Assembly (NCBI GenBank): GCA_038889235.1
Contig: JAWAHN010000001.1
Coordinates: 524,499-556,498 of the forward strand
Direction of reading: 5' to 3'
Source: Candidatus Jordarchaeales archaeon
GTDB lineage: Archaea > Asgardarchaeota > Jordiarchaeia > Jordiarchaeales > Freyrarchaeaceae
Length of the DNA stretch: 32,000 nt
The notes beneath the pieces are model-generated. The model did not search any database. It saw only the letters and a program-made list of their open reading frames with translations, and was not told where the DNA came from. The position numbers and the translations under genes are program-made. The stretch's first letter is position 1. Each line of letters opens with the position of its first letter. This document shows, piece by piece, positions 22,611 through 29,729 of this stretch.

Positions 22611-22994
22611 TTAGTCTTCCACTTCGATCCAGTTCATTTCGTCCTTGGAGTAGGCTGCAAGCTCGTAGTCCTTTGTCATCTCGATGGCGCCGTTCGGACA
22701 CGACAAAGTACATTGACCACAGAACATGCAGGCCGCCAGGAATATTTTGGGTCTTTTTCCTGTTTTTGTTCTTTGTCCTTCGGGTCTGGTGTCTGGCACC
22801 ATTGTTATCGCTCCTGTGGGGCAGTCTCTGGCACATAGGCTGCATCCATTGCACTTGTTAACGTGGTATATGTGTCTTCCTCGGTAGCCTTCGGGTACTG
22901 GGAGTTTTTCGAATGGATAGAAGACTGTTGCCGGCTTCCTCGTTAGGTGTTTCATGAGTAACGGGATTATGGCGGCTGGTCGTGGCACGTTCAA
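22611..22994 (-). CDS. NuoI/EchF-like 2x[4Fe-4S] subunit
   Basis: ATVFYPFEK, YRGRH, CNGCSLCARDCP, CMFCGQCTLSCP. Confidence 0.9.
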   Translation of the reverse strand: MNVPRPAAIIPLLMKHLTRKPATVFYPFEKLPVPEGYRGRHIYHVNKCNGCSLCARDCPTGAITMVPDTRPEGQRTKTGKRPKIFLAACMFCGQCTLSCPNGAIEMTKDYELAAYSKDEMNWIEVED

Positions 22995-23001
22995 ACACCT
23001 C

Positions 23002-24291
23002 CTACAGCATGCTCAAGGCTAGCATTATTAGTGTGGAAGTTGCCCTCCATCCGAAGAGGTCGAAGTAGGCTGCCGCCTGTATCACTACGATGTTGAGTAT
23101 CGTTAACGGGATGAGGTATTTCCAAGCTCCCGCCGTCACCTGGTCTATTCTGAACCTCGCGAACGCTGTCCTAAGCAGCGTTATCAGGAAGAGAACCGCG
23201 AAGAGCTTGACAAGGAACCAGCCAAGACCAATCAAGTACCCTAGTGGAAGGGCGCCAAACATTCTTTCAATGGGGGTTACCCCTATGCTGCTTCCCGGTC
23301 CATAGGGCCCGCCTAGGAACAACGCGGCAGCCAATCCAGCTCCGAATATCATCTCTAGATCGCCTGCCGCCCTGAACATTGCAAGTTTCTTACCAGAGAT
23401 TTCTGTTTGCCAGCCTGCAACTATCTCGGTGTGGGCTTCTGGTATGTCGAACGGGACTTTCTCCATTTCAGCCATAAGCGAGATCAGAAGCGAAACGAAC
23501 GATATTGGCGCCACGAGTATCAATGGCATTTTCGTGATCGCCTGGAAAGTGGTGATGTTCCCTATGGTTAATACCTGCAAGATGGAGAATGGTTGCAGCT
23601 GGAGCAGAGGGGCAATGTAGAACGTCCAAAGCTCGGGCATTAGCGTTGAGAGCAGCAGGTATTGTTCTATGGTCAGCCTCGGAAGGTTGAGAAGGCCGAG
23701 AAACGCCAACATCTGGGCGACTTGTTGTGGGGTTGCCATGTAGCACGCGACGACTAGCGCCGGTGTGAGTGCGGATAGTGCCAGTGGTACTTCAAACGCC
23801 ACAAGCTGCAAGCCCGACCTCGCGGTCCCTATTTCGCCAAACCTGCTGGTTGAGAACCAGCCCGTGAGTATCACGGTAATGGTGTACATGGTTGCCAGGA
23901 ATATTAGGAAGACGAGGTCGCCTTCGAAACTTATGATTCCCGATCCCTTGTAGACGGGAAGGAACATTACCATAGTTAGAGCCACGGTGAACGCCACTAT
24001 GGGCGTCGCTACCAAGCTCTTGGCGTCTGCGCCTTTCTGCACTACATCTTCTTTGGCTAGCAGCTTTATGAAGTCTGCTAGTGGCTGTAAGATGCCGTGC
24101 CACCCAGTATAGAATGGTCCGACGCGGTGTTGCAAGCGTGCATGGACTTTTCTGTCAAACCACTCGCCGAGGAAGGCTAATGCTACCATGAAGATTGCTC
24201 CCGGGAACACTAACAGCTTGAAGAGTTCTTTTGCGATGTTGAAGGCTTCGAGTTGCTGAGATAACAGGTAGAGGAGGAGTTCAGTGCTCAT
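23002..24291 (-). CDS. NuoH/EchB-like membrane subunit with a large internal insertion
   Basis: RKVHARLQHRVGP, LQPLADFIKLLAKE, KVPFDIPEAHTEIVAG, RFRIDQ. Confidence 0.92.
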   Translation of the reverse strand: MSTELLLYLLSQQLEAFNIAKELFKLLVFPGAIFMVALAFLGEWFDRKVHARLQHRVGPFYTGWHGILQPLADFIKLLAKEDVVQKGADAKSLVATPIVAFTVALTMVMFLPVYKGSGIISFEGDLVFLIFLATMYTITVILTGWFSTSRFGEIGTARSGLQLVAFEVPLALSALTPALVVACYMATPQQVAQMLAFLGLLNLPRLTIEQYLLLSTLMPELWTFYIAPLLQLQPFSILQVLTIGNITTFQAITKMPLILVAPISFVSLLISLMAEMEKVPFDIPEAHTEIVAGWQTEISGKKLAMFRAAGDLEMIFGAGLAAALFLGGPYGPGSSIGVTPIERMFGALPLGYLIGLGWFLVKLFAVLFLITLLRTAFARFRIDQVTAGAWKYLIPLTILNIVVIQAAAYFDLFGWRATSTLIMLALSML

Positions 24292-24356: not shown

Positions 24357-25609
24357 CTACCACCGCCTCTCCTTCTCATTGAACTCCCTGCTATACTTTC
24401 GGAGTTCCTCCATTGACCAGACCCAGGAGTGTTCTTTCTCGACGTCCACGAACACTAACCTGTCCTCACATGAGAAGCATGGGTCAATTGACGCTAACGC
24501 CACAGGGATGTCTGCGATGTAGCAGCCTTTTAAGAGCTCTGCGACTGAGAGTATGTTCGCCATGGTCGGCGTCCTAATCTTGACCCTGTAAGGTTTATCG
24601 GTGCCATTGCTCTTCACATAGTAAACTAGCTCACCTCTCTGGGCTTCAAACCTAGAGAAGGCTTCACCCTCAGCCACACGCCGGATGAGCTTCTCGGGCA
24701 TGATGTTCCCGTCTTTAGGCATATGGTCGAGGCACCATCGGATGATCTTAATGCTTTCGAGTGTTTCGAGCACGCGCACAACAGCCCTACCGAAAGAGTC
24801 GCAAGAGTCCCACGTTACAACGTTAAACTCTGCCTCATCGTATTTCAAGTGCGGATCGTCTTTACGTACATCTCGCTCAACCCCAGCTGCACGAATGGTA
24901 GGGCCAACGGCTCCCAACTTTACGCCAGTCACAGGATCGAGAATGCCTACATCTTCAGTCCTCTTCCTGATAGTAGTCTCTTCAAGACACAATTTCTCGT
25001 AGTATTTCGTCCTCTCTTCGAGGTAGTCGAGACCTTTCCTGATTTTGTCAGCGAGCTCAGGAGTTATGTCCCTTCTAACACCGCCGATGATATTCATAGC
25101 ATAGTTGACCCTATTACCTGAAATAGCCTCAAGCAGATCCATAACAACTTCTCTATCACGCCACACGTACATGAACAGTGTCTCAAAACCAATTTCTAAT
25201 CCTAGAGCGCCAAGCCACAGCAGGTGGCTGTGGATACGCTCAAGCTCGCTCACTATGGTCCTGATAAACTTAGCTTTCTCACTAACCTCTATTCCGCCAG
25301 CCTCTTCAACAGCCAGCGAAAAGCAAGTCGTATTCGCGCTCCCCAAGGCGACGGGCACACATAGAACTTACGACATTTGCCTTAGAGGAGTTGCGCGTTC
25401 GAACATATACCGCAAACCCTTTCTACCAAGAATATTCCTTGTATGTAGGTCCTGTTTTCCAGCGCCTTTTCTATCCCCCTGTGAACATACCCGATCCTAG
25501 GTTTCACGTCTACGACTGTTTCTCCCTCAACAAATATCTGGAACAGTTCAGGCTCGTGTAGAGCAGGGTGTTGTGGGCCAATGGGTACTATTACGGGTGC
25601 CGTTTTAAT
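24357..25609 (-). CDS. Group 4 [NiFe]-hydrogenase large subunit (NuoD/EchE-like), two exons: 25609-25392 and 25332-24357, 397 aa after splicing
   Basis: Exon 1 reads PIGPQHPALHEP...GYVHRGIEK...ERVCGICSNA (L1 motif). Exon 2 reads TTCF...ELERIHSHL...DPCFSCEDR (L2 motif). Probable ATT start at 25609 after GGAGGTG. Confidence 0.88.
25333..25391 (-). other. 59-nt bulge-helix-bulge (tRNA-type) intron in the hydrogenase large-subunit gene
   Basis: mRNA reads CGCG-CA^A-CUCCUCUAAGGC...GCCUUGGGGAG-CGCG-AA^U. Standard cuts join CA+U into the His codon and restore the frame. Confidence 0.85.
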
Positions 25610-25650
25610 GCACCTCCCTTCTATATCTTGTTTTCACGTCTTTTGTTTTG

Positions 25651-25670
25651 TTTATAAAATGTTTTCGCCT
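25651..25670 (-). promoter_or_regulatory. BRE/TATA-like promoter (AGGCGAAAACATTTTATAAA) upstream of the large-subunit gene
   Basis: Purine-rich BRE followed by TTTATAAA about 40 nt upstream of the ATT start. Confidence 0.55.
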
Positions 25671-26350
25671 TGTTTCTATAGAAAAGTCTTCGAACGTCAA
25701 CACGTTTTAAGTTTCCAACAGCGCTCTCTACGGCTTACTACCGTGACGAAGCTGCCTAAGGTCTACTATTTTTACCACTCACCTTTTCCTAACAGTTCTT
25801 AGTGCTACAGGCAGGTGCACTATTTCCTTCCGTTATCATTTGATTGCGCATTCATGTAGTGCATTCACACCACATAGCGAATTTAGGAGTATGAGCGCCG
25901 GCTTAATTCCATGTACGCTGAAGTTGGAGACTAGGGATTTCAATAAAGGGCTGGAAACCTTGTGAAAGAGTTAACGTCCGTGACCACGAGAAAGACTAAT
26001 AAAGCCGGTGGACGTCAGATCTTGATTAACTGTGCCGAACAGCGTCGAAGTTCAGCACTCGTGGGGACACGCATGGTGTCTCTTAAAAACAGGATTTTGG
26101 TTTTGAAAAGTGCAAGTTGTGTGAAGCGTCTTTATTGTTAAAAACCCCTTTTTTAATGTACTGCGTTTTAGTTAAGATTCAATAAGTTAGGATGCTATAA
26201 AAGTAAAGGGCAGAGTAGTGTTATTTTTTCTCAGGCTGTTGAAAAAGGGGGAGGGGTAGTGTTCTGCAGGGATGCCAGGGGGGCTTTTGGGAGGGAAGAA
26301 TTTATGTTTTTCTGACAGGGAGGGGGTCAGCTAGTGCTGTAGGATGGTTT

Positions 26351-26830
26351 CTACTCTTGTTGTGCCGGCTGCCAGTCCTTTCTAAGTGGGTATACGCCCT
26401 CCGGCCAGTCTTCGGGTAGTACGAGGCGTTCGAGGCTTGGGTGTCCTTCGAAAACTACTCCTAGGAGGTCGTGGACCTCGCGTTCGTAGAGGTTGCTTGA
26501 CGGCAGGATGTCTGTTATTGTTTCGAGCTTAGGGTTGGACTTTGGCACCATCGTCCTCACCATCACTGCTGTTTGAGGCTCCTTCGACCTCCACAAGTGG
26601 AATATTACCTCTATGTTTTCCCCGAGGTCGACGCCTGTTATCGTGGAGACGTGCCATAGGTCCCAGTTGTCTCTCATATACTCTATGACTTTCCTGTGCA
26701 CTCCAGGTTTTACTCTCAAGTGAATTCTCCTCGACCTTTTAATGTAGGCTTCCTCAAGTTGCGGCCCGAAGGCCGCTTTAAGTTCCTCGAGGAGTTGTTC
26801 CTCGCTCTTGGCCTCCTTCTTCTTGCCCAT
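26351..26830 (-). CDS. NuoC/EchD-like subunit
   Basis: [39 protein letters not shown]. Confidence 0.92.
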
Positions 26831-26842
26831 CTTCTTCCCCCT

Positions 26843-27277
26843 CTACAGTTTTTGTATTTTTGCGAGAAGTTTCGCTACGCCGTCAATGATAGCCTCTGGC
26901 TTAGGCGGACACCCTGGCACGTACACGTCAACTGGGACTGCCGTGTCTATTCCCCCCTCGACCCCATAGCATCCCTTGAACACGCCTCCCGTGCATGCAC
27001 AGTTTCCAACCGCCATCACAAACTTGGGGTCGGGAACTTGCTCGTAGAGCTTCCTAAACCTGGCTTTCATTTGTTTAGTGATAGGCCCGGTGCAGACGAG
27101 GACGTCGGCGTGCCTTGGACTCCCCATTAGGAGAACACCGAAACGTTCGACATCGAATCGTGGCATTAGTGCTGCTAAGATTTCGATGTCACAAGCGTTG
27201 CATCCGCCGGTGTTCAAGTGGAGTATCCATGGCGACTTTAGCCTCGCCCATTTTATGACTTTGTCGAGGAGTCCCAT
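26843..27277 (-). CDS. NuoB/EchC-like small Fe-S subunit
   Basis: GGCNACDIE, SPRHAD, GNCACTGG, PGCPPKPE. Confidence 0.93.
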   Translation of the reverse strand: MGLLDKVIKWARLKSPWILHLNTGGCNACDIEILAALMPRFDVERFGVLLMGSPRHADVLVCTGPITKQMKARFRKLYEQVPDPKFVMAVGNCACTGGVFKGCYGVEGGIDTAVPVDVYVPGCPPKPEAIIDGVAKLLAKIQKL

Positions 27278-28672: not shown

Positions 28673-29729
28673 GTGAAGGAGTTAGAATACAGGATGACTA
28701 AGGTTGTAAAGCTTCACGGTTGAGCTTGTAAGCTCCCGCAGGCAGATTTGAAGAAGCTTCTAGAGAAGGCGGGGGTCACAACTCCGAGCAACATTCTAAG
28801 TGGGCCCGACGAGGATGCAGCCGTTATACGTGTCCGGGATGACATGGTGCTCGTGAAAACGATAGACTTCGTTACGCCGAGCGTCGACGAGGGATATGTT
28901 CAGGGGAAGATTGCAGCCGCTAACGCGACAAGCGACGTGTACAACACAGCCACGAGGCGGGCTGTGTGCATAAGCGAAGGGTGCAACCGAGATAGTTGGC
29001 TTCTTGGCGGTCTTAGGCGTGCCCACAGACATGCCTGTGGAAATAGCAGTAGATATTCTTCGGGGGATCAAAGACTACTTAAGTGAGGTCGGAGGGGCAT
29101 TGGTTGGCGGGCACACGATATTTAACCCGTGGCCGCTGTCTGGGGGCGAAGTTACTGCTATAGCCCATCCAAGTCAGATAGTCTACCAGAGAGGTGCTAG
29201 GGCCGGGGATGTGTTGGTTCTCACAAAGCCACTGGGGACCCAGCCGGCAATGGCTGTCTATAGAAGTGTGAAGGAGCCGGAGACGCGCGAACTAGTGCTA
29301 AGCGTGCTTTCAGAGAAAGAGGCGGAGGAATTAGTTAGGAAGGCGATAGGATTCATGACGCAGTCAAACAAACCTGTTGCTGAAGCTATGAGGGAGGTTA
29401 AGCCTAATGCTGCAACCGACGTAACAGGGTTTGGGCTTGTGGGACATGCTGGAAACATGGCTAGGGAGAGCGGGGTTGACGTGGAGATACAATTTTTACC
29501 AGTTATGAGGGGTGCTGTTCAAGTCTCAGAGCTCTTTGGCTACGGGTTAGAAAGAGGGGAAGCTGCGGAGACCTCTGGTGGAATCTTGGCGTCGCTGCCT
29601 AAGGAGAAAGTTGACGAGTTCCTGGGCGAGTTGAAAAAACGCGGAGTTACAGCTTACATCGTTGGTGAGATTAAGCGCGGCGAGGGGAAAGTTACTGTGA
29701 AGCGTGACGTCGAAATGATCGAGGTGTAG
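28673..29729 (+). CDS. selD: Selenophosphate synthetase, a selenoprotein (UGA=Sec at 28721-28723), two exons: 28673-28942 and 28974-29729, 341 aa after splicing
   Basis: VKLHG-U-ACKLP matches archaeal SelD. Also EDAAV, TIDFVTP, GKIAAANATSDVY|AKG, GGHT, LTKPLGT, ATDVTGFGLVGH, ETSGG. Start position (GTG 28673) inferred. Confidence 0.92.
28943..28973 (+). other. 31-nt bulge-helix-bulge intron in selD
   Basis: mRNA reads GUGU-AC^A-ACACAGCC-loop-GGCUGUGU-GCAU-AA^G. Removal restores the frame and SDVYAKG. Confidence 0.78.

Follow-up and report, generated by a model that had tools for sequence, protein, structure and literature searches.

A 59-nucleotide insert in the hydrogenase gene of a Jordarchaeales archaeon as a probable bulge-helix-bulge intron of an mRNA

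How can a [NiFe]-hydrogenase large subunit be made from a gene whose reading frame stops within a nickel-site motif? The question is raised by a stretch of 32,000 nucleotides (nt) from a Candidatus Jordarchaeales archaeon (an Asgard archaeon, Jordarchaeum, of hot springs; GenBank assembly GCA_038889235.1, contig JAWAHN010000001.1, positions 524,499 to 556,498), here called the window, on whose reverse strand a large-subunit gene is broken immediately after the residues ERVCGICSNA. The frame of the first part continues as Q L L and an in-frame TAA, and the coding sequence resumes in another frame with ...TTCFSLAVEEAGG; this break, with its stop and its change of frame, had been pointed out in a first-pass annotation of the window and is read directly from the sequence. 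The answer that we consider highly likely is that the 59 nt between the two parts are an intron of the bulge-helix-bulge (BHB) type, class HBh′, in the pre-mRNA of the sole group-4 [NiFe]-hydrogenase large-subunit gene of this genome, and that very probably the mRNA must be relieved of them by splicing.

By its NuoD-like fold and its NuoB-, NuoC-, NuoH- and NuoI-like operon partners, the product of the locus is assigned to the large subunits of the group-4 (energy-converting, Mbh/Ech-like) hydrogenases; its best solved relative is MbhL of Pyrococcus furiosus (6cfw_L, E 1.7e-64), and the 2.14-Mb genome of the window (G000) holds just one large subunit of the NuoD/Mbh type. In the NCBIfam NuoD/FpoD profiles the first piece of the gene is matched as far as about position 71, and the second from about position 70–78 onwards, so that the two pieces together leave no gap in the profile, and the break is therefore an insertion and not a loss. 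Relatives bear the names Candidatus Jordarchaeum or Jordarchaeales. The comparison genomes were three of the same genus (G001–G003) and one of the same family (G004), and in all four the orthologue is uninterrupted at this place and reads GCx CAY, in comparison with which the window has exactly 59 extra nt, situated inside the His codon. Such an alignment had been proposed in the first-pass annotation as a check, and its outcome bears the proposal out. The predicted spliced product is colinear with these orthologues, with no indel and with 84–86% identity, and the His at its junction position is found in every one of the uninterrupted homologues fetched (173/173). In other words, the N-terminal nickel-site motif RxCGxCxxxH, here RVCGICSNAH, is complete only once the 59 nt are removed, while the C-terminal one, DPCxxCxxR/H (DPCFSCEDR), is encoded by exon 2. 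The deposited records give the large subunit as fragments of 41 and of 329–335 amino acids (aa).

The insert and its edges contain the elements of a BHB motif: two 3-nt bulges on opposite strands with a 4-bp helix between them, and a flanking helix, h′, on the intron side (6 + 5 bp, with one bulged U), which gives the class HBh′ (Table 1). The CGCG/CGCG helix, the bulges CAA and AAU and the 11-bp stem all stand at the positions at which they were first noted. If each bulge is cut after its second base, the 59 nt from 25391 to 25333 go out and CA is joined to U 25332, which supplies the last base of the His codon CAU; the rule, applied in that annotation with no adjustment, thus takes out the very bases that the orthologues lack. 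The spliced protein would read CGICSNA-H-TTC, the predicted junction in the RNA being ...AACGCGCA joined to UACGACUUGC... (beginning with UACGAC after the junction) and the predicted junction-spanning peptide ...VCGICSNAHTTCF... (the SNAHTTCF region). The Ala codon that takes part in the central helix is GCG here, as against GCT or GCC in the intron-less orthologues of the same genus (G001–G003).

The significance of this structure rests on its exact register and not on its stability, because the orthologue alignment anchors the position and the length of the insert independently. When the insert was shuffled 200,000 times and the cut sites were kept where that alignment puts them, a central helix with four of four pairs together with a flanking helix arose in 0.3% of cases in the fixed register, and an intron stem of at least 6 bp, in the same register, in a fraction of 7.5e-5. 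Eight nearby and loosely BHB-like solutions restore an open reading frame (ORF), and one of the eight, the proposed one, is colinear with the orthologues. The number of HBh′ motifs with h′ of at least 6 bp in the whole genome is 39,888, against 39,577 in a mirror-image null, and therefore the motif is useless for discovery without an independent anchor.

A look-up of protein clusters, followed by per-run Logan assemblies, led to a diverged lineage (contigs L201–L203, from SRR32459161-3) with an intron of 57 nt at the same site; scans of metagenomes and species genomes gave no further carriers of the 59-nt intron. Once spliced, the coding sequences of the window and of L202 are separated by 111 synonymous changes and by 9 nonsynonymous ones, which are conservative (dS 0.61, dN 0.010, omega 0.016); these are distributed as 15 and 0 in exon 1 and 96 and 9 in exon 2, and neither a stop nor a frameshift interrupts the 1,188 nt. 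An omega so low with the intron in both lineages means that the gene stayed functional while the intron was present, and the comparison places the origin of the 59/57-nt intron before the split of the two lineages. With 57 nt in place of 59, the two exons stand in a different frame relative to each other in the DNA, yet splicing by the BHB rule yields the same ORF in either lineage. The intron has changed unevenly, with a conserved BHB core and a drifting loop: in the core (H, H′, bulges and h′) one of 37 positions has changed, from U.G to C-G in the 5′ strand of h′, compared with 9 of 27 positions and a 2-nt indel in the intron loop (Fisher p = 0.0012), whose closing A.C has become G.U in the 57-nt lineage. 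The 59-nt insert itself occurs in identical form in GCA_038886715.1, GCA_038894675.1, GCA_038824485.1 and GCA_038837545.1, where the exon-2 ORF agrees letter for letter; in the index used, the truncated exon-2 ORF is listed for about 15 contigs, and 7 of these were read in addition to the window.

The enzymes that such an intron would need are encoded in the same genome. There are two paralogues of the splicing endonuclease EndA in an alpha/beta arrangement, whose genes lie in G000 at C1:1056.2-1056.8 kb and C3:444.3-444.9 kb. The alpha paralogue has in its ORF translation the catalytic triad Tyr/His/Lys, its best solved match is the catalytic alpha subunit of Aeropyrum pernix (3p1z_B, E 4e-47), and the alignment runs without gaps through the Crenarchaea-specific loop, with a Lys opposite K44 and another opposite R46; in the translation of the other paralogue the catalytic His is missing. 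The Crenarchaea-specific loop confers broad substrate specificity (PMC3241643), and the alpha-beta arrangement, together with the epsilon-2 type, is one that cuts non-canonical introns (PMC5829648). RtcB is also encoded, and the host thus has both an EndA of the broad-specificity type and the ligase.

For the living cell we infer a course of cleavage, ligation and circularisation that would be as follows: (i) the transcript would fold so that the CGCG of the exon pairs with the CGCG of the intron, flanked by CAA and AAU and stacked on the 11-bp intron hairpin; (ii) the heteromeric alpha-beta EndA would cut after the second base of each bulge; (iii) RtcB would join the exons and probably circularise the intron; (iv) and finally, the joining would complete CAU, so that the nickel-site motif has its invariant His and one ORF of 395–397 codons results. 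On the unspliced RNA, ribosomes would halt at a UAA three codons past the junction.

This intron would not be the only one of its kind. In the sister species Jordarchaeales JZ-1 bin 29 (G003), the same gene carries a different insert, of 50 nt, between ...PALH and EPE..., after codon 16 (L033:2277-2326; also L113:404-453), which is found in the JGI contig Ga0105162_1007018 too. It forms a strict hBHBh′ motif, with an outer helix CCGGCU/AGCCGG, a central helix UUGC/GCAA (4/4), bulges ACA and AAG, an inner stem h′ of 9 bp and an h of 7 bp, and the BHB cutting rule restores from it an ORF of 395 codons. By parsimony, the 59-nt and the 50-nt introns would be two independent gains in one genus. In the genome of the window three further protein-coding genes, selD, cbf5 and hypD, contain short inserts of this type (Table 1). 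In selD the central helix is GUGU/GCAU, the bulges are ACA and AAG, and the stem has 8 bp. That of hypD, whose product is a hydrogenase maturation factor, is a mini-intron with a central helix CGGG/CCCG that is present in all five of the family members examined (L207–L210 in the relatives); across the five genomes the third pair of its stem shows covariation (C-G, U-A, U.G), and the Thr codon split by the intron differs synonymously at its last base. In this Asgard lineage, introns of the type seem to be many and their gain to be still in progress, for in the sister species the same gene took up a second intron at another place. We lean towards the wider view that the Jordarchaeia carry a dynamic population of introns spliced by EndA and RtcB in ordinary protein-coding genes, and that the splicing of mRNA is routine and obligatory in them. 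As regards the tRNAs, the same genome is 95% complete and ARAGORN recognises no more than 14 tRNA genes in it; introns are called in 10 of these, several of them outside the anticodon loop or at non-canonical positions. Most of the tRNA genes are probably hidden by multiple introns.

A number of observations weigh against the proposed reading of the 59 nt and have to be set beside those above. The exon-side helix h has 0 bp in the strict register, where what remains is a 3-bp UCG/CGA offset by an internal loop, and the motif is not of the strict hBHBh′ form. That strict form is the one needed by an EndA of narrow specificity. The overall folding energy is ordinary (z = -0.43 against dinucleotide shuffles), and the BHB conformer, at -19.4 kcal/mol, lies above the minimum-free-energy fold, at -23.0 kcal/mol, in which the register is shifted to a central helix of 5 bp. 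There are only two distinct intron sequences, so that the covariation rests on very few events; the genomes of the same genus, G001–G003, lack the 59-nt intron. Finally, the start codon is uncertain: the ATG of the orthologues reads ACG here (25603), at the same spacing of 7 nt from a GGAGGTG, and an in-frame ATT stands two codons upstream of it, at 25609. On two of these points the first-pass annotation stands in part. Its product of 397 aa holds if translation begins at the ATT, the ORF having 395 codons from the ACG; and its description of the motif as relaxed fits the lack of an exon-side helix in register and not the 2026 preprint in which HBh′ is listed among the canonical motif classes (10.64898/2026.10.13.758758), since the label depends on the definition chosen and the motif is an HBh′ with all four central pairs. 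As for the start, a non-canonical codon seems to be in use, because both the ACG and the ATT are kept in the diverged lineage, where the gene is under selection.

Among the other explanations, the one that survives best, though we hold it to be very unlikely, is that of a gene split in two and translated without splicing into a fragment of about 75 aa ending in ...CGICSNAQLL and a second, about 330 aa long, that begins within the insert (...PVALGSANTTCF). The purifying selection on both exons would equally be expected of it, and the exon-2 frame is indeed open from GTG 25358 or TTG 25346 (TTG/GTG in the 57-nt lineage), which is how gene callers annotate it. But two such proteins would lose the His that is invariant in the homologues, no Shine-Dalgarno-like sequence is seen at the usual spacing before the candidate internal starts, and the equivalent in the sister species would leave an N-terminal peptide of 16 aa. 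A split gene also leaves unexplained why a non-coding 5′ half of the stem should be conserved, with a change that improves its pairing, and why the BHB rule should rebuild a colinear protein exactly.

The idea that the gene was recently inactivated, and that the 59 nt are an inert insert or a dead intron in a decaying gene, we regard as highly improbable. It would account for the change of ATG to ACG and for an operon broken by a spacer that is absent in eight relatives, and the genome has, on another contig, a second, group-3-like hydrogenase, so that the Hyp genes, HypD being among the proteins encoded, need not depend on the group-4 enzyme. Nevertheless, the insert, the ACG and the spacer are common to two lineages separated by the dS given above, with the omega found between them and with spliced frames free of stops and frameshifts; on the G000 branch overall the large-subunit gene has accumulated 104 synonymous and 27 nonsynonymous changes; the four neighbouring subunit genes are all intact, judging by their Pfam matches; and this would be the loss of the one large subunit of its type in the genome. 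The early judgement that decay or an assembly error was unlikely is thus upheld by the omega and by the independent assemblies.

A programmed translational bypass, like that of T4 gene 60, would have the ribosome hop from GCG 25396-25394 to GCG 25337-25335 and resume at AAU. Such a hop would have its matched GCG codons at a distance of 59 nt, and a hairpin and an in-frame stop lie between the two, yet we find it scarcely credible: the product would have Asn where 173/173 homologues have His, the stop lies three codons after the take-off site and not adjacent to it, which is unlike a bypass of this class, the structure that is conserved is the BHB geometry in its exact register, and the introns of selD, hypD, cbf5 and the sister species obey the BHB rule at exact registers too. 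A single ribosomal frameshift is excluded, the two open stretches having no overlap, because the exon-1 frame stops at 25384-25382 and the exon-2 frame meets a TAA within a few codons on the upstream side of GTG 25358. That an artefact of assembly or binning added the 59 nt is next to impossible: that the genomes are metagenome-assembled is all that speaks for it, and it is refuted by the identical insert in five assemblies at the National Center for Biotechnology Information (NCBI) from different samples and by the 57-nt variant in three independent per-run Logan assemblies.

Returning to the BHB intron, the closest known system is the intron of the cbf5 pre-mRNA of Crenarchaeota (Watanabe et al. 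2002, FEBS Lett 510:27; Yoshinari et al. 2006). Both are short BHB-type introns in a coding sequence, with cutting by a hetero-oligomeric EndA, predicted or shown, and ligation, and both have a patchy pattern of gain and loss among close relatives, which for cbf5 was described by Yokobori et al. (2009; PMC2738675); the cbf5 of the present genome is itself split. The differences are that here the host gene is that of an energy-converting hydrogenase and not of an RNA-modification enzyme, that the host is an Asgard archaeon (Jordarchaeia) and not a crenarchaeon, and that the codon split belongs to a metal-site motif and the splicing is predicted. In Haloferax volcanii the transcript of HVO_1309 (Schwarz et al. 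2020, PMC7714728) is likewise an mRNA substrate of the archaeal splicing endonuclease, from which the removal of the intron matters for expression, although that intron lies in the 5′ untranslated region (UTR) and was demonstrated to be cut both in vivo and in vitro, whereas the present one is a predicted intron of the coding sequence; beside its own 5′-UTR case, the same paper gives cbf5 as the only additional archaeal mRNA BHB intron reported. The non-canonical tRNA introns of Thermoproteales and Asgard archaea (PMC3241643; 10.64898/2026.10.13.758758) share with it the hBHBh′ and HBh′ classes, the type of enzyme with the Crenarchaea-specific loop and the repeated independent gains at different positions, and the tRNA genes of the present genome look crowded with introns; in an mRNA, however, the constraint is the reading frame and the codon, and not the fold of a tRNA. 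The Asgard preprint does not treat mRNAs, and in the literature searched there is no report of a BHB intron in a hydrogenase gene or in Asgard mRNAs, in agreement with the first-pass annotation, which had known of none in a hydrogenase. As regards the protein, the product here shares with MbhL of Pyrococcus furiosus, its closest solved relative, both nickel-binding Cys motifs and the NuoB/C/H/I-like partners; it differs in that no intron is reported for mbhL in the literature searched and in that the cluster here has five genes and no adjacent antiporter-like subunits.

Introns of coding sequences cut by the splicing endonuclease have been documented in archaea for one gene, cbf5, since 2002, together with the one 5′-UTR case. 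If the present reading is true, the machinery of the tRNAs would splice mRNA in an archaeal phylum regarded as the closest to the eukaryotes, and it would do so in a core gene of energy metabolism, for which the comparative data indicate that function was kept long after the arrival of the intron. Hydrogen metabolism would then be doubly dependent on splicing, through the catalytic subunit and through HypD, and a regulatory gate could arise from the competition of splicing with coupled translation. There is also a practical side, in that gene callers split or truncate such genes, and reconstructions of Asgard metabolism may consequently score hydrogenases, SelD or HypD wrongly as missing or broken. 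The locus offers a testable case of mRNA splicing by protein enzymes in Asgard archaea.

Table 1. Features of the hydrogenase locus and of the other predicted mRNA introns; positions are those of the window unless a contig is named.
Feature	Position	Strand	Remarks
Intron, 59 nt (predicted)	25333..25391	-	Exactly the bases extra relative to the orthologues in G001–G004
Central helix H, 5′ strand, CGCG, exon 1	25394..25397	-	All four pairs with 25335-25338 are Watson-Crick
Central helix H′, 3′ strand, CGCG, intron	25335..25338	-	
Bulge 1, CAA	25391..25393	-	Predicted 5′ cut between 25392 and 25391
Bulge 2, AAU	25332..25334	-	Predicted 3′ cut between 25333 and 25332
Intron helix h′, 5′ strand, CUCCUC, bulged U, AAGGC	25379..25390	-	6+5 bp with 25339-25349
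Intron helix h′, 3′ strand, GCCUUGGGGAG	25339..25349	-	Same in both intron-bearing lineages
Exon 1, ~72 codons	25392..25609	-	Ends GCG CA; NCBIfam NuoD/FpoD profile positions 3-71 matched
Exon 2, 324 codons + third base of His + stop	24357..25332	-	Pfam Complex1_49kDa, E 1e-74
Group-4 [NiFe]-hydrogenase large subunit, both exons	24357..25609	-	
NuoB-like hydrogenase small subunit	26843..27277	-	Pfam Oxidored_q6
NuoC-like subunit	26351..26830	-	Pfam Complex1_30kDa
NuoH-like membrane subunit	23002..24291	-	Pfam NADHdh
NuoI-like 2x[4Fe-4S] ferredoxin subunit	22611..22994	-	Pfam Fer4 families
Shine-Dalgarno-like GGAGGTG	25611..25617	-	7 nt upstream of ACG 25603; kept in relatives before ATG
Lineage-specific non-coding spacer, 741 nt	25610..26350	-	From the NuoC-like gene to the large subunit
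TATA-box-like TTTATAAA	25651..25658	-	Surrounding 40 nt identical in L201-L203; further upstream diverges
selD intron, 31 nt, HBh′ (predicted)	28943-28973	+	Removal restores ...ATSDVY joined to AKGATEIVGF...
cbf5 intron, 29 nt, HBh′ (predicted)	G000 C1:835887-835915 (L199:1482-1510)		Removal rebuilds the catalytic GTLDP motif
hypD mini-intron, 16-17 nt (predicted)	G000 C1:259820-259836 (L196:1483-1499)		Between VCGT and HEQT

The hydrogenase cluster is made up of five genes on the reverse strand, in the order NuoB-like, NuoC-like, large subunit, NuoH-like and NuoI-like, and antiporter-like subunits are absent beside them. A search of Rfam with the window and with the surroundings of the locus gave no match, and ARAGORN no tRNA in the window; the intron has no TGATGA or CTGA box, that is, no sign of a C/D-box RNA, and neither it nor the spacer of 741 nt upstream of the large-subunit gene has further copies in the genome by BLAST, so that no mobile or repeated element is seen.

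In three of the genomes of the same family (G001, G002 and G004) the NuoC-like gene and the large subunit are separated by a few dozen nt, as against the 741 nt of the window. This spacer contains no ORF and no repeat, matches nothing in Rfam or in the eight relatives and has no unusual fold; a large BHB intron spanning it was considered and rejected, the matches being at chance level. Its first 130 nt are C-rich and are followed by runs of oligo-T. The spacer is common to both intron-bearing lineages, and its last 60 nt or so, which include the TTTATAAA box, are kept in the diverged one, which suggests that the transcript of the large subunit may have a promoter of its own at this box.

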